A stretch of 64,000 bases of DNA from Octopus vulgaris (Eukaryota): assembly GCA_951406725.2 (NCBI GenBank), contig OX597837.1, forward strand, positions 16,988,001 to 17,052,000, read 5' to 3'. Positions 11,044-47,876 of the stretch are shown here, piece after piece. The notes under the pieces are model-generated. The model searched no databases. It was not told the DNA's origin and saw nothing but the letters and a program-made list of their open reading frames with translations. Positions within the stretch are counted from its first letter, which is position 1. The number at the start of each line of letters is the position of its first letter. A program made the translations under genes and the position numbers.

Positions 11044-11112
11044 ATATTCGTCTTCTTTTACCTTTCCTTTTTCTTTCTTATTTTCTCTCTTTTTGCTGCC
11101 TTTTAAACTTTT

Positions 11113-14100: not shown

Positions 14101-17100
14101 AGCGGTAAAATCTGATGAACCAAGTACAACAGTACAAGGTAGAAGAGCCAACGACAAGAGTAAAAACTGAAGAAACAACAATAACAGTAAAAGCTGAAGC
14201 ACAAACAACAGTAAAAAGCAAAAGAAACAACAGCAAAAGCTCAAGAACTAACAACACTAAAATCTGCATAACCAACGACAAGAGTAAAATCTTAAGAACC
14301 AACAAAAACAGTAAAAGCTGAGGAACCAACAACAGCATTAAAAGATGAATAACAAACAACAGTAAAATCTAAAGAACCAATAAAACAGTAAAAGCTGAAG
14401 AACCAACAACAGTAAAAGTAGAAGAACCAATAACAGTAAAATCTGAACTACCAACGACAAAAGTAAAATCTAACAAACAAAAGTAATATCTGAAGAACCA
14501 TCAACAAAAGTAAAATCTGCATAACCAACGACAAGAGTAAAATCTTAAAAACCAACAAAAACAGTAAAAGCTGAAGAACCAACAACAGTAAAAGCTGAAG
14601 AAGCAACAACATTAAACGCAGAAGAACCAACAACAGTAAAAGCTGAAGAACCAACAACAACATTAAAAGCTGAATAACAAACAAAAGTAATATCTGAAGA
14701 ACCATCAACAACAGTAAAAGCTGAAGAACCAACAACAACAGTAAAAGCTGAATAACCAACAGAAGTAAAAGCTGAAGAACCAACGACAGTAAAAGCTGAA
14801 GAACCAACGACAACAGTAACAGCTGAATAGCCAACAACAGTAAAAGCTGAATAACCAAAAACAACAGTAAAAGCTGAATAGCCATCAACAAAAAAAAGCT
14901 GAAGAACCAACAACAGCATTAAAAGCCGAATAACAAATAACAACAGTTAAATCTGACGAACCCAAAAAACAGTAAAAGCTGAAGAACCAACAACAACAGT
15001 AAAAGCGGAAGAACCAGCAACAACAGTAAAAGCTGAAAAACATACAACAACAGTAAAGCTGAAGAACCAACAACAACAGTAAAAGCTGAAGAACCAGCAA
15101 CAACATTAAAAGATGAATAACAAAGAACAACAGTAAAATCTGAAGTACCAACAACAAAAGTAAAAGTAGAAGAACCAACAACAGTAAAATCTGAAGAACC
15201 AACGACAACAGTAAAAGCTGAATAACCAACAACAACAGTAAAATCTGAAGAAACATCAAAAACAGTAAAATCTGAAGAACCAGCATCAAGAGTAAAAGCA
15301 GATGATCTAACAACAGTAAAAGCCAAAGAACCAACAACAGTAAAAGCTGAAGAAGCAACAAGAACATACAACAACAGTAAAAGCTGAAGAACCAACAACA
15401 ACAGTAAAAGGTGAAGAACCAACAACAACAGTAAAAGGTGAAGAACCAGCAACAACATTAAAAGATGAATAACAAAGAACAACAGTAAAATCTGAAGAAC
15501 CATCAACAAAAGTAAAAGTTGAAAACCAAACGACAACAGTAAAAGCTGAAGAACCAACAAAAACAGTAAAAGCTGAATAACCAACAACAACAGTAAAAGC
15601 TGAAGAACCAACAACAACAGTAAAAGCTGAAGAACCAACAAAAACAGTAAAAGCTGAAGAACCAACAACAACAGTAAAAGTTGAAGAACCAACAACAACA
15701 GTAAAATCTGAAGAAACATCAACAAAAGCTGAAGAATCAACAACAACAGTAGAAGCTGAAGAAACAAGAACAGCGGTAAAATCTGATGAACCAAGTACAA
15801 CAGTACAAGGTAGAAGAGCCAACGACAAGAGTAAAAACTGAAGAAACAACAATAACAGTAAAAGCTGAAGCACAAACAACAGTAAAAAGCAAAAGAAACA
15901 ACAGCAAAAGCTCAAGAACTAACAACAGTAAAATCTGCATAACCAACAACAGTAAAATCTTAAGAGCCAACAAAAACAGTAAAAGCTGAGAACCAACAGC
16001 AGCATTAAAAGATGAATAACAAACAACAGTAAAATCTAAAGAACCAATAAAGAACCAACAAAGAACCAGTAAAAGCTGAAGAACCAACAACAACAGTAAA
16101 AGCTGAAAAACACAACAACAGTAAAAGCTGAAGAACCAACAACAACAGTAAAAGCTGAATAACCAACAACAACAGTAAAAGCTGAATAACCAACAACAAC
16201 AGTAAAATCTGAAGAAACATCAACAACAGTAAAAGCTGAAGAACCAACAACAACAGTAAAAGCTGAAGAACCAACGACATAGCTTTTACTGTTGTTGATG
16301 GTTCTTCAGCTTTTACTGTTGTTGGTTCTTCAGCTTTTACTGTTGTTGATGGTTCTTCAGGTTTTACTGTTGTAATTGCTTCTTCAAATTTTACAGTTGT
16401 TGGTTATTCAGCTTTCACTGTTGTTAGTGGTTATTAAAAGCTGAAAAACAAACAACAACAGTAAAAGCTGAAGAGCCAACAACAATAGTAAAAGCTGGAG
16501 AACCGGCAACAACAATAAAAGCTGAAGAACCAACAACAGTAAAAGCTGAAGAACCAACAGAAGTAAAAGCTGAAGAACCAACAGTAAAAGCTGAAGAACT
16601 GTTGTTGGTTCTTCATCTTTTACTGTTGTTGTTGGTTATTCAGATTTTACTCTCGTTGGTTCTTCAGCTTTTAATGTTTTCGATGGTTCTTTAGCTTTTA
16701 CTGTTGTTGTTGGTTCTTCAGACTTTTCTGTAGTTGTTAATTCTTCAGCTTTTACTGTTATGGATAGTCTTTCTACTTCTACTGTTGTTGATGGTTCTTC
16801 AGGTTTTACTGTTGTTATTGGTTTTTCAGATTTTTCTGTTGTTGGTTGTTCAGCTTTTACTGTTTTCCTTAGTTCTTCACCTTTTAATGTTTTATTGTTG
16901 TTGGTTATTCAGCTTTCACTGTTGTTATTGGTTATTAAAAGCAGAAAAACAAACAACAGTAAAAGCTGAAGAACCAACAACAACAGTCAAAGCTGAATAA
17001 CCAGCAACAGTAAAAGCTGAAGAAGCAAGAACAAGCTGAATAACCGGCAACATTAAAAGCTGAATAACAAACAACAGTAAAACCTGAAGAACCATCAACA

Positions 17101-20100
17101 ACAGTAAAAGCTGAAGAACCAACAACAACAGTAAAAGCTGAAGAACTAACAACAACAGTAAAAGCTGAAGTACCATCAACAGCATTAAAAGCCGAATAAC
17201 AAACAACAGTAAAAATCTGAAGAGCCAAACAGTAAAAGCTGAAGAACCAACAACAACAGTAAAAGCGGAAGAACCAACAACAACAACAGCAACAGTAAAA
17301 GCTGATGAGCCAACAACAGTAAAAGATGAAGAACCAAGAACAACAGTAAAAGCCGAAGAAACAACAACAGTAAAAGCTGAAGTACCAGCGGTAAAAGCAG
17401 AATAACTGTTGTTGGTTCTTCGGCTTTTACTGTTGTTAGTTCTTGTCCTTTTACTGTGGTTGCTGGTTCTTCAGATTTTACTCTTGTTGTTGGTTATTCA
17501 GCTTTTACTGTTGTTATTGGTTATTCAGCTTTTACAGTTGTCGTTGGTTCTTCAGCTTTTACTGTTGTTGGTTCTTCAGGATTTACTGTTGTTATTGGTT
17601 GTTCTGCTTTTACTGTTGTCGTTGGTTCTTCAGCTTTTACTGTTGTTGGTACTTCAGATTTTGCTGTTGTTGTTTCTTTTGCTTTTTTACTCTTGTTGTT
17701 TGTGCTTCAGCTTTTACTTTTATTGTTGTTTCTTCAGTTTTTACTCGTGTCGTTGGAAATTCTACCTTGTACTGTTGTACTTGGTTCATCAGCTTTTACT
17801 GCTCTTGATGGTTCTTTAGGTGTTACGGTTGTTGGTTCTTCAGGTTTTACTGTTGTTCTTGGTTCTTCAGGTTTTACTGTTGTTGTTGGTTCTTCAGGTT
17901 TTACTGTTGTTGTTGTTTCTTCAGGTTTTACTGTTGTTGTGGGTTATTCAGCTTTTACTGCTCTTGATGGTTCTTTTTTGTTGTTGTTGATTCTTCATCT
18001 ATTACATTTGTTGTTGGTTATTCAGCTTTCACTGTTGTTATTGGTTATTAAAAGCTGAAAAACAAATAACAACAGTAAAAGCTAAAGAGCCAATAACAAC
18101 CGTGAAAGCTGAAGAACAAGCGACAACAGTAAAAGCTGAAAAACCAACAACAGTAAAAGCTGAAGCAGCAGGAACAACAGTAAAGCTGAATAACCGGCAA
18201 CATTAAAAGCTGGATAACAAAAAACAGTAAAATCTGAAGAACCATCAACAACAGTAAAACCTGAAGAACCAACAACAGTAAAAGCTGAATAACCAACAAC
18301 AAAAGTAAAACATGAACAAACATCAACAAAGTAAAAGCTGAAGATCTGACAACAAAAGTAAAAGCAGAAGAACCAACAACAACAGTAAAAGCCGAAGAAC
18401 CAACAACAGTAAAAGCTGAAGAACCAACAACAGTAAAACATGAAGAACGAACAACAACAGTAAAATCTGAAGAAACATCAACAACAGTAAAAGCTGAAGA
18501 ACCGGCAACATCAGTAAAAGCTGAATAACAAAGAACAACAGTAATATCTGAAGAACCAACAACAGTAAAAGCTGAAAACGCCAACAGTAAAAGCAGAAGA
18601 ACCAACAAAAACAGTAAAAGCTTAAGAACCAACAACAACAGTAAAAGCTGAAGAAACAACAACAAGAGTAAAAGCTGAATAACCAACAACAACAGTAAAA
18701 GCTGCATAACCAACAATAGTAAAAGCTGAAAACCAAACGACAAGAGTAAAACCTTAAGAACCAACAACAACAGTAAAAGTTGAAGAACCATCAAGAGCTG
18801 TAAAATCTGATGAACCAAGTACAACAGTACAAGGTAGAAGACCCAACGACAAGAGTAAAAACTGAAGAAACAACAATAACAGTAAAAGCTGAAGCACAAA
18901 CGACAACAGGAAAAAACAAAAGAAACAACAGCAAAAGCTGAAGAACTACCAACAACAGTAAAACCTGAAGAAACATCAACAACAGTAAAAGCTGAAGAAC
19001 CAACAACAAAATAAAAGCTGAAGAACCAGCAACAGCATTAATAGCCCAATAACAAACAACAACAGTAAAATCTGAAGAACCAATAAAACAGTAAAAGCTG
19101 AAGAACCAAGAACAACAGTAAAAACGGAAGCAACAACAACTGTGAAAGCTGAAAAACAAACAACAACAGTAAAAAACAAAAGAAACAACAGCAAAAGCTG
19201 AAGAACTACCAACAACAGTAAAACCTGAAGAAACATCAACAACAGTAAAAGCTAAAGAACCAACAACAGTAAAATCTGATGAACCATTAAAACAGTAAAA
19301 GCTGAAGAACCAAACAAACGGAAGAAACAACAGTGAAAGCTGAAAAAAAAACATCAGTAAAAGCAGAAGAACCAGCAACAACAGCAAGTAAAACCTGAAC
19401 AAAAATAGTAAAAGTTGGAGAACCAACAACAACAGTAAATGCTGAAGAACCAATGACAACAGTAAAAGCAGAATAACTGTTGTTAGTTCTGCTTTTAATG
19501 TGGTTGCTGTTTCTTCAGATTTTACTGTTTTATTGGTTCTTGTCCTTTTACTGTGGTTGTTGGTTATACAGCTTTTACTGTTACTGTTACTGTTGGTTCT
19601 TCAGCTTTTACTGTTATTGTTACTTCAGCTTTTACTGTTGTTTCTTTTGCTTTTTTAGTCTTGTTGTTTGTGCTTCAGCTTTTACTTTTATTGTTGTTTC
19701 TTCAGTTTTTACTCGTGTCGTTGGAAATTCTACCTTGTACTGTTGTACTTGGTTCATCAGCTTTTACTGCTCTTGATGGTTCTTTAGGTGTTACGGTTGT
19801 TGGTTCTTCAGCTTTTACTGTTGTTCTTGGTTCTTCAGGTTTTACTGTTGTTGTTGGTTCTTCAGGTTTTACTGTTGTTGTTGTTTCTTCAGGTTTTACT
19901 GTTGGTTATCCAACTTTTACTGTTATTGGTTATTCAGCTTTTACAGTTGTCGTTGGTTCTTCAGCTGTTACTGTTGGTTCTTCAGCTTTTACTGTTATTG
20001 TTACTTCAGATTTTGCTGTTGTTGTTTCTTTTGCTTTTTTAGTCTTGTTGTTTGTGCTTCAGCTTTTACTTTTATTGTTGTTTCTTCAGTTTTTACTCGT

Positions 20101-23100
20101 GTCGATGGTTCTTTAGGTGTTACGGTTGTTGGTTCTTCAGGTTTTACTGTTGTTCTTGGTTCTTCAGGTTTTACTGTTGTTGCTGGTTCTTCAGGTTTTA
20201 CTGTTGTTGTTGTTTCTTCAGGTTTTACTGTATTTGTGGGTTATTCAGCTTTTACTGCTCTTGATGGTTCTTTTTTGTTGTTGTTGATTCTTCATCTTTT
20301 ACTGTTGTTGATGGTTCTTCAGCTTTTACTGTTGTTGGTTCTTCAGCTTTTACTGTTGTTATTGGTTCTTCAGATTTTACAGTTGTTGTTGGTCATTCAG
20401 CTTTCACTGTTGTTATTGTTAATTAAAAGCTGAAAAACAAACAACGACAGTAAAAGCTGAAGAACCAACAACAACAGTAAAATCTGAAGAACCAATAACA
20501 ACAGTAAAAGCTGAAGAACCAGCAACAACAGTAAAAGCAGAAGAACCAACAACAACAGCAAAAGCTGAAGAACCAACAACAGCAAAAGCTGATGAAGCAA
20601 GAACAACAGAAAAAGTTGAATAACCGGCAACATTATAAGCTGAATAACAAACTAAAATCTAAATAACCAACAACAAAAGTAAAAGCTGAAGAACATTAAA
20701 ATCTAAAGAACCAATAAAACAGAAAAAGCTGAAGAACGAACAACAACAGTAAAAGCTGAAAAACCAACAACAAAAGTAAAAGCTGAAAAACAAACAACAA
20801 AAGTAAAAGCTGAAGAGCCAACAACAGTAAAAGGTGAAGAACCAACAACAGTAAAGCCGAAGAACCAATAAAACAATAAAAGCTGAAGAACCATTAAAAC
20901 AGTAAAAGCTGAAGAACCAACAACAATAGTAAACTCTGAAGAAACATCAACAACAGTAAAATCTGAAAAACCCTCAACAATAGTAAAAGCTAAATAACCA
21001 ACAACAACAGAAAAAGCTGAATAACCAACAACAGTAAAAGCTGAAGAAGGAAGAACAACTGTAAAAGATGAATAACCGGCAACATTAAAAGCTGAATAAC
21101 AAACAACAGTAAAATTTGAAGAACCATCAACAATAGTAAAAGCTAAATAACCTACAACAACAGTAAAAGCTGAAGAACCAACAACAGTAAAAGCTGAAGA
21201 AGCAAGAACAACTGTAAAAGATGAATAACCGGCAACATTAAAAGCTGAATAACAAACAACAGTAAAATCTGAAGAACCATCAACAACAGTAAAAGCTAAA
21301 GAAGCAACAACAACAGTAAAACCTGAAGAAACATCAACAGTAAAAGCTGAATAAATAACAACAAAAGTAAAAGCTGAAAAACCATCAACAGCATTAAAGG
21401 CCGAATAACAAACAACAACAGTAAAATCTGAAGAACCAATAAAACAGTGAATGCTGAAGAACCAGCAACAACGTTAAAATATGAATAACCAACAACAACA
21501 GTAAAAGCTGAAGAACCAACAACAGTAAGAGCTGAAGAAGCAAGAACAACTGTAAAAGATGAATAACCGGCAACATTAAAAGCTGAATAACAAACAACAG
21601 AGAAACCTGAAGAACCAATAAAACAGTAAAAGCTGAAGAACCAACAACAACAGTAAAAGCTGAAAAACAAACAACAGTAAAAGCTGAGAGCCAACAACAA
21701 CAGTAAAAGCTGAAGAACCAACAACAACAGTAAAATCTGAAGAACCAGCAACAATAATAAAAGCTAAAGAAGCAACAACAGTAAAAGCTGAAGAACCGGC
21801 AACAACAGTAAAAGCTGAATAACGAACAACAACAGCAAAATCTGAAGAACCAACAACAACAGTAAAAGTTGAAAACCAAACGACAACAGTAAAACCTTAA
21901 GTACCAACAACAACAGTAAAAGTTGATGAACTATCAAGAGCTGTAAAATCTGATGAACCAAGTACAACAGTACAAGGTAGAAGAGCCAACGACAAGAGAA
22001 AAAACTGAAGAAACAACAATAACAGTTAAAGCTTAAGCACAAACAACAACAGTAAAAGGTGAAGAACCAACAATAACAGTTAAAGCTGAAGCACAAACAA
22101 CAACAGTAAAAGCTGAAGAACCAACAACAACAGTAAAATCTGAAGAACCAATAAAACAGTAAAAGCTGAAGAACCAACAACAGTAAAACCTGAAGTACCA
22201 ACAACAATAGTAAAATCTGAAGAAACATCAACAATAGTAAAAGCTGAAGAACCGAAAACAACAGTAAAAGCTGAAGAACAACAACAGTAAAATCTGAAGA
22301 GCCAACAACAACAGTAAAAGCTGAAGAACCAACAACAACAGTAAAAGCTGAAGAACCAGCAACAATGTTAAAATATGAATAACAATCAACAACAGTAAAA
22401 TCTGAAAAACCAACAACAACAGTAAAAGCTGAATAACCAACAACAACAGTAAAAGCTGAAGAACCGGCAACATTAAAAGCTGAATAACAAACAATAGTAA
22501 AATCTGAAGAAACAACAACAACAGTAAAAGCTGAAGAAACAACAACAACAGTAAAAGAAGAAGAAACATCAACAACAGTAAAAGCTGAAGAACCAACAAC
22601 AACAGTAAAAGGTGAAGAACCATCAACAGTATTAAAGGCCGAATTACAAACAACAACAGTAAAATCTAAAGAACCAAAAAAATAGTAAAAGCTGAAGAAC
22701 CAACGACAACAGTAAAAGCAGAATAACTGTTGGTTTTTCGGCTTTTACTGTTAGTTCTGCTTTTACTGCGGTTGCTGGTTCTTCAGATTTTACTGTTGTT
22801 GATGTTTTCAGATTTTACTATTGTTCTTTGTTATTCAGCTTTTACTGAAGCGGTTGCTGCTTCTTAAGATTTTACTGTTGTTGTTGGTTCTTCAGGTTTT
22901 ACTGTTGTTGTTGTTTCTTCAGGTTTTACTGTTGTTGTTGGTTCTTCAGCTTTTACTGTTGTTATTGGTTCTTCAGCTTTTACTGTTGTTGTTGGTTGTT
23001 CAGCTTTTACTGTTGTTGTTGGTTCTTCAGCTTTTACTGTTGTTGTTGGTTCTTCATCTTTTACTGTTGTTGGTTATTCAGATTTTTCTCTTGTTTTTAG

Positions 23101-26100
23101 TTGTCAGCTTTTACTCTTGTTGTTGGTTCTTCAGCTTATAATGATTTTGATGGTTCTTCGGCTTTTACTGTTGTTGTTGCTTCTTCAGCTTTTTCTGTTA
23201 TTGATAGTTTTTCAGCTTTTACGGTTGTTGATGGTTCTTCAGGTTTTACTGTTGTTATTGGTTTTTCAGAATTTACTGTTCTTGTTTCTTCCAAAAGCCG
23301 AAGTACCCACAACAGTAAAAGCTGAAGAACCAACAACAACAGTCAAAGCTGAAGAACTAACAACAACAGTAAAATCTGAAGAACCAAGAACAACAGTTGG
23401 TTATTCAGCTTTTACTGTTGTTGTTGGTTATTCAGCTTTTACTGTTGTTATTGGTTATTAAAAGCTGAAAACAAACAACATCAGTAAAAGCTGAAGAACC
23501 AACGACAACAGTAAAAGCTGAATAACCAACAACAACAGTAAAAGCTGATGAACCAACAACAACACTAAAAGCTGAAGAACCAACAACAACAGTAAAATCT
23601 GAAGAACCAATAAAACAGTAAAACCTGAAGAACCATCAACAGTAAAATCTAAAGAACCAACAACAACAGTATTAGCTGAAAACCAAACGACAACAGTAAA
23701 AGCTGAAGAACCAACAAAAATAGTAAAAGCTGAAGAATTAACAACAATAGTAAAATAAAGTACTAACGACAAAAGTAAAAGCTGAAGAACCAACAGTAAA
23801 ATCTGATGTACCAACGGAAGCAGTAACAGCAGAATAACTGTTGTTGGTTCTTCGGCTTTTACTGTTGTTAGGGCTTCTGCTTTTACTGTGGTTGCTGGTT
23901 CTTCAGATTTTACTGTTGTTGTTGGTTATTCAGCTTTTATTGTTGTTGTTGGTTATTCAGCTTTTACTGTTGTTATTGGTTATTCAGATTTTACTGTTGT
24001 TGTTGGTTATTCAGCTTTTACTGTTGTTGTTGGTTATTCAGCTTTTACTGTTGTTGTTGGTTATTCAGCTTTTACTGTTGTTATTGGTTATTCAGATTTT
24101 ACTGTTGTTGTTGGTTATTCAGCTTTTACTGTTGTTGGTTATTCAGCTTTCACTGTTGTTGGTTATTCAGCTTTTACTGTTGTTATTGGTTCTTTAGCTT
24201 TTACTGTTGTTGTTGGTTATTCAGCTTTTATTGTTGTTGGTTTTTCAGCTTTTACTGTTGTTGTTGGTTATTCAGCTTTTACTGTTGTTATTGGTTATTC
24301 AGATTTTACAGCTGTCGTTGGTACTTCAGCTTTTACTGTTGTTAGTTCTTCAGGTTTTACTGTTGTTATTAGTTGTTCTGCTTTTACTGTTGTCGTTGGT
24401 TCTTCAGCATTTACTGTTGTTGGTACTTCAAATTTTGCTCTTGTTGTATGTGCTTTAGCTTTTACTGTTATTGTTGTTACTCTTATTGATAGTTTTTCAG
24501 GTTTTACTGTTATTGGTTTTTCAGATTTTACTGTTGTCGTTGCTTCTTCAGCTTTTAATGTTGTTGTTAGTTCTTCAACTTTTACTGTTGTTGAAGTTTC
24601 TTCAGGTTTTACTGTTTTTGTTGGTTTTCAGCTGTTACTCTTGTCGTTGGCTCTTCTACCTTGTACTGTTGTACTTGGTTTATCAGCTTTTACTGCTCTT
24701 GATGGTTCTTTTTTGTTGTTGTTCATTCTTCATTTACTTTTGTTGTTTGTTCTTCAGCTTTTACTCTTGTTGTTGGTTCTTCAGCTTTTACTGTTGTTGT
24801 TGGTTATTCAGATTTTTCTCTTGTTTTTACTTGTCAGCTTTTACTCTTGTTGGTTCTTCAGCTGTTAATGTTTTTGATGGTTCTTCAGCTTTTACTGTTG
24901 TTGTTGGTTCTTCAGCTTTTACTGTTGTCGTTGGTTCTTCAGCTTTTACTATTGTTGATTCTTCAGACTTTTCAGTTGTTGTTACTTCTTCAACTTTTAC
25001 TGTTGATGATGGTTTGTCAGCTTTTACTATTGTTGTTTGTTCTTCAGCTTTTACTGTTGTTGTTAATTCTTCAGCTTTTAATGTTTTATTGGTTCTTCAG
25101 ATTTTACTGTTGTTGTTGGTTCTTCAGCTTTTACTGTTGTTGATTCTTCAGCTTTTACTATTGTTGATTCTTCAGACTTTTCAGTCGTTTTTACTGCTTC
25201 AGCTTTTACTGTTGATGATGGTTTTTCAACTTTTACTGTTGTTATTGGTTCTTTAGCTTTTACTGTTGTTGTTGGTTCTTCAGCTTTTACAGTTGTTGTT
25301 GGGTCTTCAGGTTTTACTGTTGTTGTTGGTTCTTCAGATTTTACTGTTGTTATTGGTTCTTCAGATTTTACAGTTGTTGTTGGTTATTCAGCTTTTACTG
25401 TTGTTGGTACTTCAGATTTTTCTGTTGTTGTTTCTTTTGCTTTTTTACTCTTGTTGTTTGTTCTTCAGGTTTTACTGTTATTGTTGATTCTTCAGTTTTT
25501 AGTCTTGTCGTTGGATCTTCTACCTTGTACTGTTGTACTTGGTTCATCAATTTTTACTGTTGTTGTTGGTTCTTAAGATTTTACTGAAGAACCAACAACA
25601 GCAGTAAAATCTGAAAAACCAACAACAGTAAAAGCTGAAGAACCAATAATAACAGTAAAAGCTGAAAAACTATCAATAACAGTAAAACCGGAAGAACCAA
25701 CAACAACAGTAAAAGCTGAAGAACCATCAAAAACATTAAAAGCTGAAGAACCAACAGCAAAAGCTGAATAACCAACACAGTAAAATCTGCTGTTCTTGGT
25801 TCTTCAGCTTTTACTGTTGTTGTTGGTTCTTCAGCTTTTACTGTTGTTGTTGGTTCTTCAGCTTTTAATGTTTTTGATGGTTCTTCAGCTTTTACTGTTA
25901 TTGATAGTTTTTTAGCTTTTACTGTTGTTAATGGTTCTTCAGCTTTTAATGTTGTTGGTTTTTCAGATTTTACTGTTGTTATTAGTTGTTCAGCTTTTAC
26001 AGTTGTCGTTGGTTCTTCAGCATTTACTGTTGTTAGTACTTAAAATTTTGCTCTTGTTGTATGTGCTTCAGCTTTTACTGTTATTGTTGTTTCTTCAGTT

Positions 26101-29100
26101 TTTACTCTTGTCGTTGGATCTTCTACCTTGTACTGTTGTACTTGGTTCATCAGCTTTTACTGCTCTTAATGGTTCTTTAGCTGTTACTCTTATTGATAGT
26201 TTTTGAGGTTTTACTGTTATTGGTTTTTCAGATTTTACTGTTGTCGTTGCTTCTTCAGCTTTTACTATTGTTGATTCTTCAGACTTTTCAGTTGTTACTT
26301 CTTCAGCTTTTACTGTTGATGATGGTTTTTCAGCTTTTATTGTTGTTATTGGTTCTTTAGCTTTTACTGTTGTTGTTGGTTCTTCAGCTTTTACTGTTGT
26401 TGTTTGTTCTTCAGCTTTTAATTTTTTTTGGTTCTTCAGATTTTACTGTTGATATTGGTTTTTCAGATTTTACTGTTGTTGTTTGTTCTCAGCTTTTACT
26501 GTTGTCGTTGCTTCTTCAGCTTTTACTATTGTTGATTCTTTAGACTTTTCAGTCGTTTTTACTGCTTCAGCTTTTACTGTTGATGGTTTTTCAGCTTTTA
26601 CTGTTGTTATTGGTTCTTTAGCTTTTACTGTTGTTATTGGTTATTCAGATTTTACTCTTGTCGTTGGATCTTCTACCTTGTACTGTTGTACTTGGTTCAT
26701 CAGCTTTTACTGCTCTTGATGGTTCTTTAGGTGTTACTTTAGGTGTTTTTCAGGTTTTACTGTTGTTATTGGTTTTTCAGATTTTACTGTTGTTGTTGGT
26801 TCTTCAGCTTTTACTGTTGTCGTTGCTTCTTTAGCTTTTACTATTGTTGATTCTTCAGACTTTTCAGTCGTTGTTACTTCTTCAGCTTTTACTGTTGTTA
26901 TTGGTTCTTTAGCTTTTACTGTTGTTGTTGGTTCTTTAGCTTTTAATGTTTTTTTGGTTCCTCAGATTTTACTGTTGTTGTTTGTTATTTAACTTTTACT
27001 GTTGTTGATGGTTCTTCAGCTTTTACTGTTGTTGTTAGTTCTTCAGCTTTTACTGTTGTTGATGGTTCTTCAAGTTTTACTGTTGTTGAAGATTCTTCAG
27101 GTTCTACTGTTGTTGGTTATTCAGCTTTAACTGTTGTTGATGGTTCTTCAGGTTTTACTGTTGTTATTGGTTCTTCAGGTTTTACTGTTGTTGTTGGTTC
27201 TTCAGGTTTTACTGTTGTTATTGGTTCTTCAGCTTTTACTGTTGTTATTGGTTCTTCAGCTTTTACTGTTGTTGTTGGTTGTTCAGCTTTTACTGTTGTT
27301 GTTGGTTCTTCAGCTTTTACTGTTGTTGTTGGTTCTTCATCTTTTACTGTTGTTGGTTATTCAGATTTTTCTCTTGTTTTTAGTTGTCAGCTTTTACTCT
27401 TGTTGTTGGTTCTTCAGCTTATAATGATTTTGATGGTTCTTCGGCTTTTACTGTTGTTGTTGCTTCTTCAGCTTTTTCTGTTATTGATAGTTTTTCAGCT
27501 TTTACGGTTGTTGATGGTTCTTCAGGTTTTACTGTTGTTATTGGTTTTTCAGAATTTACTGTTCTTGTTTCTTCCAAAAGCCGAAGTACCCACAACAGTA
27601 AAAGCTGAAGAACCAACAACAACAGTCAAAGCTGAAGAACTAACAACAACAGTAAAATCTGAAGAACCAAGAACAACAGTTGGTTATTCAGCTTTTACTG
27701 TTGTTGTTGGTTATTCAGCTTTTACTGTTGTTATTGGTTATTAAAAGCTGAAAACAAACAACATCAGTAAAAGCTGAAGAACCAACGACAACAGTAAAAG
27801 CTGAATAACCAACAACAACAGTAAAAGCTGATGAACCAACAACAACACTAAAAGCTGAAGAACCAACAACAACAGTAAAATCTGAAGAACCAATAAAACA
27901 GTAAAAGCTGAAGAACCAACAAGAACAGTAAAACCTGAAGAACCATCAACAGTAAAATCTAAAGAACCAACAACAACAGTATTAGCTGAAAACCAAACGA
28001 CAACAGTAAAAGCTGAAGAACCAACAAAAATAGTAAAAGCTGAAGAATTAACAACAATAGTAAAATAAAGTACTAACGACAAAAGTAAAAGCTGAAGAAC
28101 CAACAGTAAAATCTGATGTACCAACGGAAGCAGTAACAGCAGAATAACTGTTGTTGGTTCTTCGGCTTTTACTGTTGTTAGGGCTTCTGCTTTTACTGTG
28201 GTTGCTGGTTCTTCAGATTTTACTGTTGTTATTGGTTATTCAGCTTTTATTGTTGTTGTTGGTTATTCAGCTTTTACTGTTGTTATTGGTTATTCAGATT
28301 TTACTGTTGTTGTTGGTTATTCAGCTTTTACTGTTGTTGTTGGTTATTCAGCTTTTACTGTTGTTGTTGGTTATTCAGCTTTTACTGTTGTTATTGGTTA
28401 TTCAGATTTTACTGTTGTTGTTGGTTATTCAGCTTTTACTGTTGTTGGTTATTCAGCTTTCACTGTTGTTGGTTATTCAGCTTTTACTGTTGTTATTGGT
28501 TCTTTAGCTTTTACTGTTGTTGTTGGTTATTCAGCTTTTATTGTTGTTGGTTTTTCAGCTTTTACTGTTGTTGTTGGTTATTCAGCTTTTACTGTTGTTA
28601 TTGGTTATTCAGATTTTACAGCTGTCGTTGGTACTTCAGCTTTTACTGTTGTTAGTTCTTCAGGTTTTACTGTTGTTATTAGTTGTTCTGCTTTTACTGT
28701 TGTCGTTGGTTCTTCAGCATTTACTGTTGTTGGTACTTCAAATTTTGCTCTTGTTGTATGTGCTTTAGCTTTTACTGTTATTGTTGTTACTCTTATTGAT
28801 AGTTTTTCAGGTTTTACTGTTATTGGTTTTTCAGATTTTACTGTTGTCGTTGCTTCTTCAGCTTTTAATGTTGTTGTTAGTTCTTCAACTTTTACTGTTG
28901 TTGAAGTTTCTTCAGGTTTTACTGTTTTTGTTGGTTTTCAGCTGTTACTCTTGTCGTTGGCTCTTCTACCTTGTACTGTTGTACTTGGTTTATCAGCTTT
29001 TACTGCTCTTGATGGTTCTTTTTTGTTGTTGTTGATTCTTCATTTACTTTTGTTGTTGGTTCTTCAGCTTTTACTCTTGCTGTTGGTTCTTCAGCTTTTA

Positions 29101-32100
29101 CTGTTGAAGAGCCAACAACAACAGTAAAAGCTGAAGAACCAGCAACAACATTAAAAGATGAATAACAAACAACAACAGTAAAATCTGGAGAAAGTACTAA
29201 CGACAAAAGTAAAAGCTGAAGAACCAACAGTAAAATCTGAAGTACCAACGACAGAATAACTGTTGTTTGTTCTTCGGCTTTTACTGTTGTTAGTTCTGCT
29301 TTTACTGTGGTTGCTGTTTCTTCAGATTTTACTGTTGTTGATGTTTCTTCAGGTTTTACTGTTGTTGTGGGTTATTCAGCTTTTACTGTTGTTGGTTCTT
29401 CAGGTTTTACTGTTGTTATTAGTTGTTCTGCTTTTACAGTTGTCGTTGGTTCTTTAGCATTTACTGTTGTTAGTACTTAAAATTTTGCTCTTGTTGTATG
29501 TGCTTCAGCTTTTACTGTTATTGTTGTTTCTTCAGTTTTTACTCTTGTCGTTGGATCTTCTACCTTGTACTGTTGTACTTGGTTCATCAGCTTTTACTGC
29601 TCTTAATGGTTCTTTAGCTGTTACTCTTATTGATAGTTTTTGAGGTTTTACTGTTATTGGTTTTTCAGATTTTACTGTTGTCGTTGCTTCTTCAGCTTTT
29701 ACTATTGTTGATTCTTCAGTCTTTTCAGTCGTTGTTACTTCTTCAGCTTTTACTGTTGATGATGGTTTTTCAGCTTTTACTGTTGTTATTGGTTCTTTAG
29801 CTTTTACTGTTGTTGTTAGTTCTTCAGCTTTTACTGTTGTTGTTAGTTCTTCAGCTTTTAATGTTTTTTTGGTTCCTCAGATTTTACTGTTGATATTGGT
29901 TTTTCAGATTTTACTGTTGTTGTTTGTTCTCAGCTTTTACTGTTGTCGTTGCTTCTTCAGCTTTTACTATTGTTGATTCTTTAGACTTTTCAGTCGTTTT
30001 TACTGCTTCAGCTTTTACTGTTGATGGTTTTTCAGCTTTTACTGTTGTTATTGGTTCTTTAGCTTTTACTGTTGTTATTGGTTATTCAGATTTTACTCTT
30101 GTCGTTGGATCTTCTACCTTGTACTGTTGTACTTGGTTCATCAGCTTTTACTGCTCTTGATGGTTCTTTAGGTGTTACTTTAGGTGTTTTTCAGGTTTTA
30201 CTGTTGTTATTGGTTTTTCAGATTTTACTGTTGTTGTTGGTTCTTCAGCTTTTACTGTTGTCGTTGCTTCTTTAGCTTTTACTATTGTTGATTCTTCAGA
30301 CTTTTCAGTCGTTGTTACTTCTTCAGCTTTTACTGTTGTTGTTGGTTCTTCAGCTTTTAATGTTTTTTTGGTTCTTCAGATTTTACTGTTGTTGTTTGTT
30401 ATTTAGCTTTTACTGTTGTTGACGGTTCTTCAGCTTTTACTGTTGTTGTTAGTTCTTCAGCTTTTACTGTTGTTGATGGTTCTTCAAGTTTTACTGTTGT
30501 TGAAGATTCTTCAGGTTCTACTGTTGTTGTTGGTTATTCAGCTTTAACTGTTGTTGATGGTTCTTCAGGTTTTACTGTTGTTATTGGTTCTTCAGATTTC
30601 ACAGTTGTTGTTGGTTATTCAGCTTTCACTGTTGTTATTGGTTATTAAAAGCTGAAAAACAAACAACAGTAAAAGCTGAAGCCAATAACAACAGTGAAAG
30701 CTGTGGAACCAACAACAGTAAAAGCTGAAGAAGCAAGAACAACAGTAAAAGCTGAATAACCGGCAACATTAAAAGCTGAATAACAAACAACATTAAAATC
30801 TGAAGAACCATCAACAACAGTAAAAGCTGAAGAACCAACAACAGTAAAAGCTGAAGAACCAACAGAAGTAAGAGCTGAAGAACCAACAACAGTAAAAGCT
30901 GAATAACCAACAACAACAGTAAAAGCTGCATAACCAACAACAAAAGTAAAACCTGAACAAGCATCAACAAAGTAAAAGCTGAAGATCCAACAACAACAGT
31001 AAAATCAGAAGAACCAATAAAACAGTAAAAGCTGAAGAACCAACAACAACAGTAAAAGCTGAAGAACCAACAACAACAGTAAATGCTGAAAAACAAACAA
31101 CAACAGTATAAGCTGAAGAACCAACAACAACAGTAAAAGCTGAAGAACCAACAACAACAGTAAAAGCTGAAGAACCAACAACAGTAACACCTAAAGAGCT
31201 GTAAAATCTGATGAACCAAGTACAACAGTACAAGGTAGAAGAGCCAACGACAAGAGTAAAAACTGAAGAAACAACAATAACAGTAAAAGCTGAAGCACAA
31301 ACAACAACAGTAAAAAACAAAAGAAACAACAACAGCAAAAGCTGAAGAACCAACAACGAGAGTAAAAGCTGAGGAAACATCAACAACAGTAAAAGCTGAA
31401 GAACCAACAACAACAGTAAAATCTGAAGAACCAATGAAACAGTAAAAGCTGAAGTACCAACAACAACAGTAAAAGCTGAAAAACAAGCAACAGTAAAAGC
31501 TGAAGAGCCAACAACAACAGTAAAAGCTGAAGAACCAACAACAACAGTAAAAGCTGAAAAACAAACAACAGTAAAAGCTGAAGAGCCAACAACAGTAAAA
31601 GCTGAAGAACCAGCAACAACATTAAAAGATGAATAACCAACAACATCAGTAAAATCTGAAGAACCATCAACAACAGTAAAAGCTGAATAACCAACAACAA
31701 CAGTAAAAGCTGAATAACCAACAACAACAGTAAAAGCTGAAGAACCAACAACAACAGTAAAAGCTTTTACTGCTTTTACTGTTGTCGTTGGTTCTTCAGC
31801 ATTTACTGTTGTTAGTACTTCAAATTTTGCTCTTGTTGTATGTGCTTCAGCTTTTACTGTTATTGTTGTTTCTTCAGTTTTTACTCTTGTCGTTGGATCT
31901 TCTACCTTGAACTGTTGTACTTGGTTCATCAGCTTTTACTGCTCTTGATGGTTCTTTAGGTGTTACTCTTATTGATAGTTTTTGAGGTAAATGTTATTGG
32001 TTTTTCAGATTTTACTGTTGTCGTTGCTTCTTCAGCTTTTACTATTGTTGATTCTTCAGTCTTTTCAGTCGTTGTTACTTCTTCAGCTTTTACTGTTGAT

Positions 32101-35100
32101 GGTTTTTCAGTTTTACTGTTGTTATTGGTTCTTTAGCTTTTACTGTTGTTGTTGATTCTTCAGCTTTTAATGTTGTTGTTAGTTCTTCAGCTTTTACTGT
32201 TGTTGATGGTTCTTCAGGTTTTACTGTTATTGTTGGTTCTTCAGCGTTTACTGTTGTCGTTGGTTCTTCAGCTTTTACTATTGTTGATTCTTCAGACTTT
32301 TAAGTTGTTGTTACTTCTTCAGCTTTTACTGTTGATGATGGTTTTTCAGCTTTTACTGTTGTTGTTGGTTCTTCAGCTTTTACTGTTGTTGTTTGTTCTT
32401 CAGCTTTTAATGTTTTATTGGTTCTTCAGATTTTACTGTTGTTGTTTGTTATTTAGCTTTTACTGTTGTTAATGGTTCTTCAGATTTTACAGTTGTTGGT
32501 TATTCAGCTTTCACTGATGTTATTGGTTATTAAAAGCTGAAAACAAACAACAACAGTAAAAGCTGAAGAACCAACAACAACAGCAAATGCTAAAGAACGA
32601 AAGAAGTAAAAGCCGAAGAACCAACAACAGTAAAAGCTGAAGAACCAACGACAACAGTAAAAGCAGAACAACCAATAACAACAGTAAAAGCTGAAGAACC
32701 AACAACAACAGTAAAATCTGAAGAACCAATAAAACAGTAAAAGCTGAAGAACCAACAACAACAGTAAAACCTGAAGAACCATCAACAGTAAAATCTAAAG
32801 AACCAACAACAACAGTAAAAGCTGAAAACCAAACGACAACAGTAAAAGCTGAAGAACCAACAAAAACAGTAAAAGCTGAAGAACCAACAACAACAGTAAA
32901 ATGAAGTACCAACAACAAAAGTAAAAGCTGAAGAACCAACTACAGTAAAATCTGAAGTACCAACGATAGCAGTAAAAGCAGAATAACTGTTGTTGGTTCT
33001 TCGGCGTTTACTGTTGTTAGTTCTTCTGCTATTACTATGGTTGCTGGTTCTTCAGATTTTACTGTTGTTCTTGGTTATTCAGCTTTTACTTTTGTTGTTG
33101 GTTATTTAGCTTTTACTGTTGTTATTTGTTATTCAGCTTTTACCGTTGTCGTTGGTTCTTCAGCTTTTACTGTTGTTATTGGTTATTCTGCTTTTACTGT
33201 TGTTGTTGGTTATTCAGCTTTTACTGTTGTTGTTGGTTATTCAGCTTTTACTGTTGTTATTGGTTATTCAGCTTTTACAGTTGTCGTTGGTTCTTCAGCT
33301 TTTACTGTTGTTGTTGGTTATTCATCTTTTACTGTTGTTATTGGTTATTCAGCTTTTACTTTTGTTGTTGGTTATTAAAAGCTGAAAACAAACAACAACA
33401 GTAAAAGCTGAAGAACCAACGACAACAGTAAAAGCTTTTACTGCTTTTACTGTTGTTATTGGTTATTCAGCTTTTACAGTTGTCGTTGGTTCTTCAGCTT
33501 TTACTGTTGTTGTTGGTTATTCAGCTTTTACTGTTGTTCTTGGTTATTCAGCTTTTACTTTTGTTGTTGGTTATTCATCTTTTACTGTTGTTATTGGTTA
33601 TTCAGCTTTTACAGTTGTCGTTGGTTCTTCAGCTTTTACTGTTGTTGTTGGTTATTCAGCTTTTACTGTTGTTCTTGGTTATTCAGCTTTTACTTTTGTT
33701 GTTGGTTATTCATCTTTTACTGTTGTTATTGGTTATTCAGCTTTTACAGTTGTCGTTGGTTCTTCAGCTTTTACTGTTGTTGTTGGTTATTCAGCTTTTA
33801 CTGTTGTTCTTGGTTATTCAGCTTTTACTTTTGTTGTTGGTTATTCATCTTTTACTGTTGTTATTGGTTATTCAGCTTTTACTTTTGTTGTTGGTTATTC
33901 ATCTTTTACTGTTGTTATTGGTTATTCAGCTTTTACAGTTGTCGTTGGTTCTTCAGCTTTTACTGTTGTTCTTGGTTATTCAGCTTTTACTTTTGTTGTT
34001 GGTTATTCAGCTTTTACTGTTGTTATTGGTTATTCAGATTTTACAGCTGTCGTTGGTACTTCAGCTTTTACTGTTGTTAGTTCTTCAGGTTTTACTGTTG
34101 TTATTAGTTGTTCTGCTTTTACTGTTGTCGTTGGTTCTTCAGCATTTACTGTTGTTAGTACTTCAAATTTTGCTCTTGTTGTATGTGCTTCAGCTTTTAC
34201 TGTTATTGTTGTTTCTTCAGTTTTTACTCTTGTCGTTGGATCTTCTACCTTGAACTGTTGTACTTGGTTCATCAGCTTTTACTGCTCTTGATGGTTCTTT
34301 AGGTGTTACTCTTATTGATAGTTTTTGAGGTTTTACTGTTATTGGTTTTTCAGATTTTACTGTTGTCGTTGCTTCTTCAGCTTTTACTATTGTTGATTCT
34401 TCAGTCTTTTCAGTCGTTGTTACTTCTTCAGCTTTTACTGTTGATGGTTTTTCAGTTTTACTGTTGTTATTGGTTCTTTAGCTTTTACTGTTGTTGTTGA
34501 TTCTTCAGCTTTTAATGTTGTTGTTAGTTCTTCAGCTTTTACTGTTGTTGATGTTTCTTCAGGTTTTACTGTTATTGTTGGTTCTTTAGCTTTTACTGTT
34601 GTCGTTGGTTCTTCAGCTTTTACTATTGTTGATTCTTCAGACTTTTCAGTTGTTACTTCTTCAGCTTTTACTGTTGATGATGGTTTTTCAGCTTTTACTG
34701 TTGTTGTTAATTCTTCAGCTTTGAATGTTTTATTGGTTCTTCAGATTTTACTGTTGTTTCTTGTTATTTAGCTTTTACTGTTGTTATTGGTTCTTCAGAT
34801 TTTACAGTTGTTGGTTATTCAGCTTTCACTGATGTTATTGGTTATTAAAAGCTGAAAACAAACAACAACAGTAAAAGCTGAAGAACCAACAACAACAGCA
34901 AATGCTAAAGAACGAAAGAAGTAAAAGCCGAAGAACCAACAACAGTAAAAGCTGAAGAACCAACGACAACAGTAAAAGCAGAACAACCAATAACAACAGT
35001 AAAAGCTGAAGAACCAACAACAACAGTAAAAGCTGAAGAACCAACAACAACAGTAAAATCTGAAGAACCAATAAAACAGTAAAAGCTGAAGAACCAACCA

Positions 35101-38100: not shown

Positions 38101-41100
38101 GAATAACAAACAACAGTAAAAATCTGAAGAACCAAACAGTAAAAGCTGAAGAACCAACAACAACAGTAAAAGCGGAAGAACCAACAACAACAGTGAAAGC
38201 TGAAGAACCAACAACAACAGTAAAAGCTGAAGAACCAACAACAACAGTAAAAGCTGAAAAACAAACAACAACAGTAAAATCTGAAGAACCAGCAACAATA
38301 GTGAAAGCTGAAGAAGCAACAACAGTAAAAGCTGAAGAACCGGCAACAACAGTAAAAGCTGAAAACCAAACGACAACAGTAAAAGCAGAAGAACCATCAA
38401 CAACAGTAAAACCTGAAGAACCATCAAGAGCTGTAAAATCTGATGAACCAAGTACAACAGTACAAGGTAGAAGAGCCAACGACAAGAGTAAAAACTGAAG
38501 AAACAACAATAACAGTAAAAGCTGAAGCACAAACAACAACAGTAAAAAACAAAAGAAACAACAACAGCAAAAGCTGAAGAACCAACAACGAGAGTAAAAG
38601 CTGAGGAAACATCAACAACAGTAAAAGCTGAAGAACCAACAACAACAGTAAAATCTGAAGAACCAATGAAACAGTAAAAGCTGAAGTACCAACAACAACA
38701 GTAAAAGCTGAAGAACCAACAACAACAGTAAAAGCTGAAAAACAAACAACAGTAAAAGCTGAAGAGCCAACAACAACAGTAAAAACTGAAAAACCAACAA
38801 CAACAGTAAAAGCTGAAGAACCAGCAACAACATTAAAAGATGAATAACCAACAACAACAGTAAAATCTGAAGAACCATCAACAACAGTAAAAGCTGAATA
38901 ACCAACAACAACAGTAAAAGCTGAATAACCAACAACAACAGTAAAAGCTGAAGAACCAACAACAGTAAAAGCTGAAGAAGCAAGAACAACAGTAAAAGCT
39001 GAATAACCGGCAACATTAAAAGCTGAATAACAAACAACAGTAAAATCTGAAGAACCATCAACAACAGTAAAAGCTGAAGAACCAATAACAGTAAAACCTG
39101 AAGAAACATCAACAACAGTAAAAGCTGAAGGACCAATAACAAAAGTAAAAGCTGAAGAACCATCAACAGCATTAAAAGCCGAATAACAAAAAACAGCAGT
39201 AAAATCTGAAGAACCAATAAAACAGTAAAAGCTGAAAAACAAACAACAATAGTAAAAGCTGAAAACCAAACGACAACAGTAAAAGCCGAAGAACCAACAA
39301 AAATAGTAAAAGCTGGAGAACCAACAACAACAGTAAAATGAAGTACCAACGACAAAAGTAAAAGCTGAAGAACAAACAACAGTAAAATCTGAAGTACCAA
39401 CAACAGTAAAAGCTGAAGAACCAACGACAACAGTAAATGCTGAAGAACCAACGACAACAGTAAAAGCAGAATAACTGTTGTTAGTTCTTCTGCTTTTACT
39501 ATGGTTGCTGGTTCTTCAGATTTTACTGTTATTGATATTTCTTCAGATTTTACTGTTGTTCTTGGTTATTCAGCTTTTACTGTTGTTGTTGGTTATTCAG
39601 CTTTTAATGTTGTTATTGGTTATTAAAAGCTGAAGAACCAACGACAACAGTAAAAGCTGAATAACCAACAACAACAGTAAAAGCTGAAGAACCAACAACA
39701 ACAGTAAAATCTGAAGAACCAATAAAACAGTAAAAGCTGAAGAACCAACAACAACAGTAAAACCTGAAGAACCATCAACAGTAAAATCTAAAGAACCAAC
39801 AACAACAGTAATAGCTGAAAACCAAACGACAACAGTAAAAGCTGAAGAACCAACAAAAATAGGAAAAGCTGAAGAACCAACAACAACAGTAAAATGAAGT
39901 ACCAACGACAAAAGTAAAAGCTGAAGAACCAACTACAGTAAAATCTGAAGTACCAACGACAGCAGTAAAAGCAGAATAACTGTTGTTGGTTCTTCGGCTT
40001 TTACTGTTGTTAGTTCTTCTGCTTTTACTATGGTTGCTGGTTCTTCAGATTTTACTGTTGTTCTTTGTTATTCAGCTTTTACTTTTGTTGTTGGTTATTC
40101 AGCTTTTACTGTTGTTATTGGTTATTCAGCTTTTACAGTTGTCGTTGGTTCTTCAGCTTTTACTGTTGTTATTGGTTATTCTGCTTTTACTGTTGTCGTT
40201 GGTATTTCAGATTTTACTGTTGTTGGTTCTTCAGCTTTTACTGTTGTAATAACAACATCTTTTACTGTTGTTCTGCTTGTACTGTTGTTGTTTCTTCAGC
40301 TTTTACTGTTGTTGGTACTTCAGATTTTGCTGTTGTTTCTTTTGCTTTTTTACTCTTGTTGTATGCGCTTTAGTTTTTACTGTTGTCGTTGGATCTTCTA
40401 CCTTGTACTGTTGTACTTGGTTCATCAGCTTTTACTGCTCTTGATGGTTCTTTAGGTGTTACTCTTATTGATAGTTTTTCAGGTTTTACTATTGTTGTTG
40501 GTTATTCAGCTTTTACTGTTGTTGTTTCTTCAGTTTTTACTCTTGTCGTTGGATCTTCTACCTTGTACTGTTGTACTTGGTTCATCAGCTTTTTCTGCTC
40601 TTGATGGTTCTTTAGGTGTTACTGTTATTGATAGTTTTTCAGGTTTTACTGTTGTTATTGGTTTTTCAGATTTTACTGTTGTTGTTGGTTCTTCAGCTTT
40701 TACTGTTGTCGTTGCTTCTTCAGCTTTTACTATTGTTGATTCTTCAGACTTTTCAGTCGTTGTTACTTCTTCAGCTTTTAATGTTGTTATTGGTTCTTTA
40801 GCTTTTACTGTTGTTGTTGGTTATTCAGCTTTCACTGTTGTTATTGGTTATTAAAAGCTGAAAAACAAACAACAACAGTAAAAGCTGAAGAGCCAATAAC
40901 AACAGTGAAAGCTGTAGAACCAACAACAACAGTAAAAGTTGAAGAACCAGCAACAACAGTAAAAGCAGAAGAACCAGCAACAACTGCAAAAGCTGAAGAA
41001 CCAACAACAGTAAAAGCTGAAGAAGCAAGAACAACAGTAAAAGCTGAATTACCGGCAACATTAAAAGCTGAATAACAAACAGTAAAATCTGAAGAACCAT

Positions 41101-43005: not shown

Positions 43006-43059
43006 AGCAGAAATGACCGTATCTTCCCTGTAACACACATAAATCACTGGTTTTATCAC

Positions 43060-43810
43060 ATTGTATTGCTGTATCAATGAGATATCTCTTAGTTTCAAAC
43101 TAACTGAATGTTTGAATGAAAGTGACTGATTCTAAGGTCGTATCGTACAGCATCCATCACTGCATCAATGACAGCCTCAGCTTCTATCTGTGGTTCTTAC
43201 AAATTGTATCAGTGACTCTATCAAATTCAGGAAGTAACTGCATCAATGATTGTATCAAACTGTATCAAATGCATTATCAAACTGACTGAATGTCCATATC
43301 AAACGGTATCAAACAAGGTGTGTATAGTTGTATTAATGGTTGTATCAGCATTACTGTCACGTGTCTCAAACACATGGCAGTAATACCTGCATCAAGAGTA
43401 TTCAATGCTGTATCAAACAGTTTGATGTATCAAACAGTAACGATGCCTCTGTTAAATAGGATCAATGCCTGTATCGAACAATAACAAAGCCTCTAAGAAC
43501 TTGTATAAAAAAATCGATGACATTATGGAACTATCAATCTATACAGCTGGTTATGTAAATCTCAGTATTCCTGACTGATTCACGCTGTATCATGTGTCCT
43601 ATCAAATTGATTTTAATGGCTAGAGGAAATCGATTCAATAGTTGAATCAACCTGATGGAAAGACTTTATCAAACTATGTAAATGATTGTAACATCAGGTT
43701 GTTTCAAAATTCTATCACTGACAGTATGAAACTGTACCAATGATTATTAATTACACGATCGAAATGGTTCAATGGCTGTCGAAAGCTGTGCTAAACTGTT
43801 TCAAACCTGC
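43060..43810 (+). repeat. Ancient degenerate short-period repeat rich in (AC)TGTATCAA
   Basis: Dozens of TGTATCAA/TATCAAA/CATCAATG variants; repeated at ~52720-53470. Confidence 0.6.
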
Positions 43811-43934
43811 ATTAATTACTGAGGCAAACTGATTCCATGGATGTGTATTTGTGTGTCAGTGTGCTTCCAGACATTTCTTTACGTATGTATTTATATATCG
43901 CGTCCAGATTGTAAAGAACTACTCACTTACGTAT

Positions 43935-44950: not shown

Positions 44951-44954
44951 TATG

Positions 44955-45170: not shown

Positions 45171-45275
45171 ATCATACTTCTTTTTTCTACCTTATTCTTC
45201 ATGGATGGACTAATACAAATATATAAGGATATCATGCAGTCATCACTTCAAGCTAAAACTTATATTCTTTATTTA

Positions 45276-45311
45276 TCATTATTATTATTGTTGTAATTAT
45301 TATTATTATTA

Positions 45312-45358
<47 letters not shown>

Positions 45359-47673: not shown

Positions 47674-47876
47674 TTTTCGTCCTAAAAACTTTGTATGGAG
47701 TGAATGGTTACCTCTATGGAAATATATACACACACGTTATACATACATGTGTGCATAGATGAATATATAAATACATTTAAATATCTATATACACTTTTAA
47801 GTGATCTTTCTGCTTCTTAGAGATAACTTTAGATATTATTTTCGTCCTAAAAAACTTTGTGCGGAGTGAATGGTTA

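Follow-up and report, generated by a model that had tools for sequence, protein, structure and literature searches.

How does a tandem repeat come to reverse its strand 34 times, and to do so mostly through the same two joints? The question is raised by an array of 27-bp (nine-codon) units in Octopus vulgaris, which we analyzed within a 64,000-nucleotide stretch of contig OX597837.1 (assembly GCA_951406725.2, positions 16,988,001 to 17,052,000 of the forward strand; hereafter the window, whose numbering is used below except for the mucin locus, where contig positions are given). The array lies 17.0 Mb along the 48.2 Mb contig. Tandem Repeats Finder locates the units at 11183–43006 and again at 47875–52655; the last base of the first copy is near 43002, and its 3′ flank starts at 43003. 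A preliminary description, made from the sequence alone, had reported 17 reverse blocks and about 34 strand switches between 16281 and 40914, and a two-state orientation scan recovered the same blocks (34 switches and 17 reverse blocks within 16281–40851), with 14,572 of the 24,634 bases in this alternating region reversed. The strand switches about every 0.7 kb in a single 37-kb locus, and the number and order of the blocks are taken from the assembly alone. Two additional reverse pieces (~48445–48492 and 49196–49664) lie in the second array copy; the 48-bp piece at 48445–48492 has no counterpart in any other copy. In the 2.8 Gb genome all 30 matches to a 43-mer of the unit, and 208 of 210 matches to a 22-mer with one mismatch allowed, fall inside the window, and in this assembly the array is restricted to this one locus.

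The answer that we favor, with a probability of roughly 0.6, is that all 34 switches descend from one inverted duplication, made by two template switches, and that everything since has been copying between direct repeats. The locus is then a mutational fossil with no dedicated system behind it, and a function is not needed to account for it.

A non-coding paralogue of mucin repeat exons

On its A-rich strand the unit translates as TTTVKAEEP. A DNA search finds a relative of the array at 47.34–47.50 Mb of this contig, 30 Mb from the window, where (TTTVTTEEP)n and related blocks are flanked by canonical splice sites (seen at block L002); the window unit departs from that of the mucin at 3 of 27 bases. 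Blocks L003 and L002 are open for 986 and 1086 codons, respectively, and other blocks of that locus show frameshifts. A small exon adjoining the repeats is 88–91% identical to two Octopus sinensis proteins with Pfam SEA (LOC115229658 and LOC118767817), one of which has a hydrophobic segment and two SEA-like stretches. Pfam SEA was not detected in single exons, nor at the mucin locus by genome search, and the SEA label of the locus is given because these homologues carry the domain. The low-copy 3′ flank of the array occurs at five places in the genome, two in the window and three downstream of mucin repeat exons, and its orientation at the mucin locus is that of the coding strand of the repeat. 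Because the units are similar and the 3′ flank is shared in the same orientation, the array is a paralogue of the mucin repeat exons. The history of the locus begins with this step, since repeat and flank are both copies of the mucin locus; neither a SEA exon nor splice sites were found for the copy in the window.

That copy is non-coding and has lost its reading frame. There are 262 stop codons in its 1380 monomers (0.16–0.24 per monomer) and none in the 370 monomers of three mucin exons, the ratio of synonymous to nonsynonymous changes is 0.16–0.21 in the array and 0.56–0.93 in the same three exons, and third codon positions are the least variable in the array but the most variable in the mucin exons. 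The longest open stretch on the coding strand is 196 amino acids, and a protein search with it returned compositional matches only, mostly from metagenomes (48 hits). Monomer length is a multiple of three in 1142 of 1353 cases, which slippage of ACA also accounts for. The idea that the array is a coding exon was rejected by the stop frequency together with the synonymous to nonsynonymous ratio. Stops are present in the block that was never inverted, including the uninverted template of junction B, and inside junction B itself, so the frame was probably lost before the inversion.

The mucin-like locus (47330000–47500000) has at least seven repeat blocks of 2.8–11 kb that alternate with duplicated SEA exons, with units of the types TTTVTTEEP, TTPKAKEPK, TTTTTEHP and QPTTPAE. 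Two of the blocks are fully open, and the frameshifts in the others are errors or decay. The 43 kb of mucin repeat exons in seven blocks contain no strand switch, and no reverse-complement 14-mers were found in them.

Two recurrent junctions and their anatomy

The switches from reverse to forward mostly use one junction sequence (A), and those from forward to reverse another (B). A scan of both strands that tolerated 2 substitutions found 14 copies of A in the window (13 in the alternating region and one at 49658), as had been reported, and 12 of B (11 and one at 49187), one more than the 10 and one previously listed, since a variant at 16590 with 2 substitutions is now included. All 26 copies have the same polarity, and neither junction was found on the minus strand; the 26 are not independent of one another. 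Junction A serves 13 of the 17 reverse-to-forward switches and B 11 of the 17 in the other direction, together 24 of 34. The remaining 10 switches are of seven further types (three of which occur twice); one type, 31764~33434, falls on the AGCT in the unit, which is self-complementary. These minor junctions are likely the result of deletions across A or B or of later local switches; comparison of their arms with other places gave near-consensus matches, by which a deletion origin is not proven. The exact 21-mer of junction A has nine matches in the genome, all in the window, and its reversed control has none. Junction-centered 80-mers are on average 94.5% identical for A (91 pairs) and 90.2% for B (55 pairs, without the 16599 copy), with a range of 79–100%.

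An assembly or chimeric-read artefact would dispose of the question, and two features of the locus could be taken that way: the stretch at 49196–49700 has the many small indels typical of a weak consensus, and the block order is that of the assembly. Contigs from 7 of 24 public sequencing runs were aligned to two stretches of the locus, a junction being counted as bridged where at least 31 bases lie on each side. A contig of run X1, which may be the source sample, spans B (39906–40012) with 74 and 33 bases on either side and no substitutions, and one of run X10, from another study, spans A (40769–40891) with 83 and 40 bases and has two changes beside A that equal those of the assembly copy at 20424. 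B-type joints also occur in runs labelled as three other organisms. In run X13 (organism C) a contig passes from forward sequence through the ten junction letters of B into reverse sequence, and in X8 (organism B) one spans B with a 3-base gap, joints of both directions being present. Contigs of X2 at A (83/28), X4 at B (131/13) and X14 at B (28/75) fall below the bridging rule and were not counted. Since contigs cross both A and B, the junctions are not assembly fold-backs; moreover, the junction copies are diverged paralogues, and their arms do not mirror each other as those of a fold-back read chimera would. An artefact is accordingly the least credible of the explanations considered here. 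X10, guessed to be RNA, also covers the flank and has no excess of one type of change, and we draw nothing from it on expression. In X8 the summed contig depth on near-consensus monomers within 39300–41300 reaches ~1,000,000, against ~118,000 in X1, with junction contigs at similar depth (200–300 against 145); organism B possibly has a related unit in far greater number, the alternative being short matches to other repeats.

The description of A and B as fold-back junctions holds in part. In a mirror test with 140-bp arms none of 36 junctions exceeded the 95th percentile of random forward-forward pairs, although small blocks give arms below 140 bp, which depresses some scores; no junction is a recent fold-back palindrome. 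What does stand is the anatomy of B, which is that of an inverted duplication. The rare monomer that ends the left arm of B occurs 15 times: 10 times at B, twice intact in the 5′ block (11945 and 13489) and three times intact on the reverse strand, each of the last three 204 bp past a B. We placed the junction arms by ranking positions by variant-weighted monomer scores. For the left arm of B the 11939/13483 site is among the top 3 of ~1300 positions in three of five copies tested (the best ranks of the other two are 24th and 73rd), and for the right arm the 12125/13672 site is among the top 8 of ~1265 positions in all five. In three of three copies the arm alignments terminate exactly at 11953 on the left and, in reverse complement, at 12149 on the right. 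By these rankings and exact ends, B connects sites on opposite strands that lie 196 bp apart. The reverse strand carries the B-site monomer again 173–206 bp past B in 5 of 12 reverse blocks, and B is identified as an inverted duplication with a spacer because of this run back over the first site and the 196-bp geometry.

The corresponding signal is weaker at A. An 18-mer variant occurs in no places but two next to A, on the minus strand 6–7 bp to its left (7 matches) and on the plus strand 38–44 bp to its right (4 matches, plus 1 local duplicate), which gives an apparent spacer of ~45 bp on a weak mirror. A less likely reading, though the strongest of the rivals, is that A and B are the two reciprocal ends of an ordinary cut-and-flip inversion, longer than one higher-order unit, that was followed by the same copying. 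Apart from a 4-bp overlap, A and B have reciprocal monomer phases, the sequence that rejoining A and B would restore is found at 11940, uninverted, and within three reverse blocks, and the left arm of A places the rejoined site 1st or 2nd of 1339 in two of seven copies. The other side does not fit: the right arm of A does not continue the right-arm site of B (ranks 236–1221 of ~1300, in six of six copies), no exact match exists for the right-hand sequence after rejoining, and the right-arm motif of A occurs 20 times forward and never reversed. A clean reciprocal inversion rejoins on the left but fails on the right, and A is probably not the reciprocal of B.

The founding event that we favor would instead be a pair of template switches. 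A replicating strand would have halted at a site of the 11953 type and jumped to the opposite strand 196 bp ahead; copying backward over its own track would have made B, and its return to the forward strand would have made A. The anatomy is observed, and the process is what would explain it.

Several observations weigh against this account. The mechanism, from the template switches through the later copying and deletion, is inferred and not observed. Seven of 12 reverse blocks do not have the re-copied B site where it would be expected, and the mirror at B, which is offset, can be followed clearly across only two or three monomers; by a rough estimate, the 1.5-kb higher-order period would put unrelated breakpoints less than 200 bp apart about one time in four. 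At A the mirror extends over only ~20 bp, with mismatches on both sides, and in seven copies the left arm of A fits the B site (ranks 1–50, three monomers) about as well as it fits the mirror site (ranks 1–115). Microhomology at the junctions is just 1–3 bp. Finally, the depth in run X1 is 86–95 for the flank (two assembled copies), 124.5 for its paralogue (three copies) and 221 for their shared part, or ~44 per copy, and by this measure the summed depths of B (258) and A (254) correspond to about six copies each, against 12–14 assembled. This estimate is a lower bound in which diverged copies drop out, and depth is no copy number; it is therefore read only as multi-copy, and the 12–14 are not confirmed by it.

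Table 1. Features of the array and its flanks (window coordinates)
Feature	Position	Strand	Remarks
5′ forward block, never inverted	11183..16280	+	higher-order period ~1.4–1.7 kb; pre-inversion order kept
Uninverted template of junction B	11861..12149	+	second copy ~13483–13696
Alternating region	16281..40851	.	17 reverse blocks (62–2336 bp), 16 forward blocks (58–2303 bp)
Junction A, 13 copies	16427..40864	+	switches ~16435, 16936, 18049, 20424, 23459, 27742, 30646, 32531, 33376, 34846, 37664, 39624, 40852
Junction B, 11 copies	16590..39985	+	switches ~16599 (variant), 17406, 19477, 22727, 23838, 28148, 29260, 32987, 35328, 39475, 39980
Seven minor junction types, 10 switches	16281..33434	+	16281; 23292=27575; 23397=27680; 25586; 25790; 29106; 31764~33434
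Final forward block, array copy 1	40852..43002	+	
3′ flank (low copy), copy 1	43003..43903	+	90–96% identical to three copies at 47.33–47.47 Mb
Array copy 2	47875..52655	+	within 9.6-kb tandem duplication; one B (49196), one A (49665), 48-bp reverse piece 48445–48492
3′ flank, copy 2	52653..53563	+	

Multiplication of the junction pair

However the first pair of junctions arose, its multiplication has left a clear pattern. The longest high-identity matches within the array are direct (for example, 23459–24796 with 27768–29106 at 98.4%), and direct duplicates of 0.6–1.3 kb that are 97–99.5% identical span junctions, whereas inverted matches are short and near consensus. Among the 28 blocks longer than 300 bp (the 5′ block excluded), the 4810 shared 40-mers connect blocks of opposite orientation in 3.2% of cases, compared with 63% when the labels are permuted, and none of 1000 permutations gave a value as low. 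This low sharing, to which shared descent contributes a part, and the single polarity of the 26 junctions show that there has been little recent exchange between the orientations; forward and reverse blocks are separate lineages. The earlier suggestion was that the inversions arose once or twice and that a unit holding both junctions was then amplified; one origin with later amplification of such units is supported by that polarity and by the direct duplicates that span junctions. We suggest that the units would have been copied, shortened and lengthened as direct repeats underwent unequal crossing-over, conversion and slippage with one another. Exchange between direct repeats cannot flip a junction, which accounts for the fixed polarity and lets forward and reverse blocks drift as two interleaved lineages. 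The seven minor junctions would then stem from deletions spanning A or B or from a small number of later switches.

A process that keeps flipping the DNA at A and B, whether site-specific or driven by structure, might be imagined, given that two sequences account for so many of the switches and that B-type joints appear under three other organism labels. It is a very remote prospect, and the data already largely refute it. The junction copies have long variant flanks in common and differ by 0–21%, as expected of copies of one ancestor; repeated flipping would give reverse-complement junctions and a mixing of orientations, but none of the 26 junctions is flipped and 3.2% of the shared 40-mers cross orientation, and the window holds no recombinase gene or recognizable site.

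The preliminary description had favored inverted-dimer circles or origin-dependent inverted-repeat amplification (ODIRA), in which an inverted-dimer circle with A and B would have formed and re-entered the chromosome, perhaps several times or by rolling-circle copying. Both junctions do match the jump-ahead geometry of ODIRA, and the ~45-bp spacer of A is within the 40–80 bp given in the available part of PMC10766186. The same text gives 5–6 bp inverted repeats, and there are none at A or B, where microhomology is limited to 1–3 bp, and the 196-bp spacer of B is outside the range. These values speak against ODIRA proper. Nor is there a unit of fixed length, since successive A junctions are 501–4283 bp apart and successive B junctions 505–4310 bp, and with no flipped junctions either, fixed-length amplification from an inverted-dimer circle is not supported. 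Repeated entry of an inverted dimer should yield both polarities, and a route through extrachromosomal circular DNA (eccDNA) sits poorly with an array limited to one locus. We consider this explanation improbable, although a single founding event of the ODIRA type is indistinguishable from the one that we favor.

Turnover has continued at the 3′ end, where ~38200–47875 and 47875–57545 form a tandem duplication, 9.6 kb long, that takes in the end of the array and its flank; the depth in one run fits two copies. The duplicated flanks differ at only 14 of ~3600 aligned bases (~99.6% identical), yet in the two duplicates the last reverse blocks measure 872 and 469 bp and the last forward blocks 2.15 and 2.99 kb, so block lengths change fast. 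Many small indels lie near 46900–49700. In the monomers of reverse blocks a hairpin-like micro-inversion, in which ~10 bp are turned, is present in two copies (~35585–35610 and ~40237–40262).

Hairpin-RNA loci built from gene copies occur in flies and mice, and the alternating structure could in principle be kept by selection, if read-through double-stranded RNA yielded small RNAs against the mucin paralogue. The 600 bp around B have a folding energy, computed as DNA, of -196 kcal/mol, where a purely forward stretch has -29, 438 of the 14,709 21-mers of the reverse blocks match the mucin repeat exons exactly, and junction B is present in several organisms. Any inverted copy of a paralogous repeat would give such folding and such matches, however, and the substitutions look unconstrained while block lengths change as fast as the last reverse blocks indicate; maintenance by selection is therefore very unlikely. 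There is a slightly better, but still slim, chance that the locus is a hairpin-RNA locus, in which the 25-kb chain of imperfect hairpins left by a dead exon, present under several octopus-related species labels, would regulate the mucin in trans through antisense small RNAs or as an editing substrate.

A decayed element at 9000–11110, which we take to be Penelope-like, adjoins the 5′ end of the array, and its last frame (10729–11040) is GIY-YIG-like, with a Pfam E value of 0.027 that is below the cut-off. A broken long terminal repeat (LTR) retrotransposon (339–3960) has 217-bp direct repeats that are 98.6% alike, gag-like and integrase frames, an internal element at ~1160–1540 that is presumably a short interspersed element, and an inverted 122-bp copy of its own 5′ part at ~2268–2389. 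Within a decayed fragment of a long interspersed element (LINE) lies a pair of ~500-bp direct repeats (5203–5700 and 7315–7830, 99% alike) that resembles a small non-autonomous LTR element, and the minus strand of 59600–63100 carries a LINE-like element whose frames match an endonuclease and a reverse transcriptase (Pfam Exo_endo_phos_2 and RVT_1).

Comparison with known systems

The locus had been put forward as an undescribed system, but conserved inversion sites within satellite arrays are known from Tribolium. According to the portions of the two reports available to us (PMC12581902, PMC13081366), the satellites TfSat01 of T. freemani and TmSat1 and TmSat2 of T. madens form arrays of opposed subarrays with few conserved inversion sites (six junction types in T. 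freemani; INV_1a, INV_1b and INV_2 in T. madens); at each junction a truncated monomer abuts a truncated reverse monomer, and foreign DNA is absent. The available text of PMC13081366 describes such macro-dyad arrays as documented only in Tribolium, and that of PMC12581902 proposes an involvement of eccDNA. The octopus array is similarly made of oppositely oriented subarrays with few types of conserved inversion site and no foreign DNA. By those same portions, however, the Tribolium arrays are of megabase size, lie on several chromosomes, are putatively centromeric, consist mostly of two subarrays and hold thousands of junctions that are 95–99.9% alike, whereas the octopus array is confined to one locus (208 of 210 22-mer matches, far from the abundance of the Tribolium satellites), switches strand much more often, has junctions that are 90–95% alike, derives from a coding exon and adjoins its own template. 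The Chio satellite of Chionographis japonica also has a short unit in mixed forward and reverse arrays, but these are, in the part of PMC10264360 available, centromeric and of megabase scale, and that text gives no description of their junction sequences. The part of PMC7004042 available says nothing on strand switching and is left out of the comparison.

Inverted triplications made by template switching offer a second comparison. As far as the accessible text of PMC10766186 and PMC13334657 goes, they have 5–6 bp junction repeats and spacers of 30–80 bp and, like the octopus array as interpreted here, two junctions in a forward-reverse-forward order, a spacer at each, and secondary deletions that make new junctions. 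They are described there as single events with near-perfect arms, whereas the arms in the octopus are ~80–90% alike, the spacer of B is longer and the junction pair has been multiplied more than 10-fold. The octopus junctions have 1–3 bp of microhomology in place of the 5–6 bp repeats, although junctions this old may have mutated. A third comparison is with the source: membrane mucins with a SEA domain (Pfam PF01390) have in common with the window array a nine-codon threonine-rich unit (24 of 27 bases) and the 3′ flank, but the mucin exons run in one direction, and the copy in the window is rich in stops and repeatedly inverted. A literature search on octopus satellites with inversions, mucin-derived satellites and octopus SEA mucins gave no relevant title, subscription journals being mostly outside its coverage.

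The conserved inversion sites of Tribolium had been read as a sign of function. In the octopus the same hallmark is found in a dead gene copy whose uninverted template and coding source are still in the genome, which provides a neutral route to "conserved" junctions, namely one event followed by direct-repeat copying. With source gene, uninverted template and product in one genome, the locus is more informative than most repeat arrays: it is a compact case of a coding repeat becoming satellite-like DNA, and it measures how little interleaved inverted blocks exchange sequence (3% against 63%). The array behaves as an inverted triplication would after later amplification, and in its form it resembles a small macro-dyad array.

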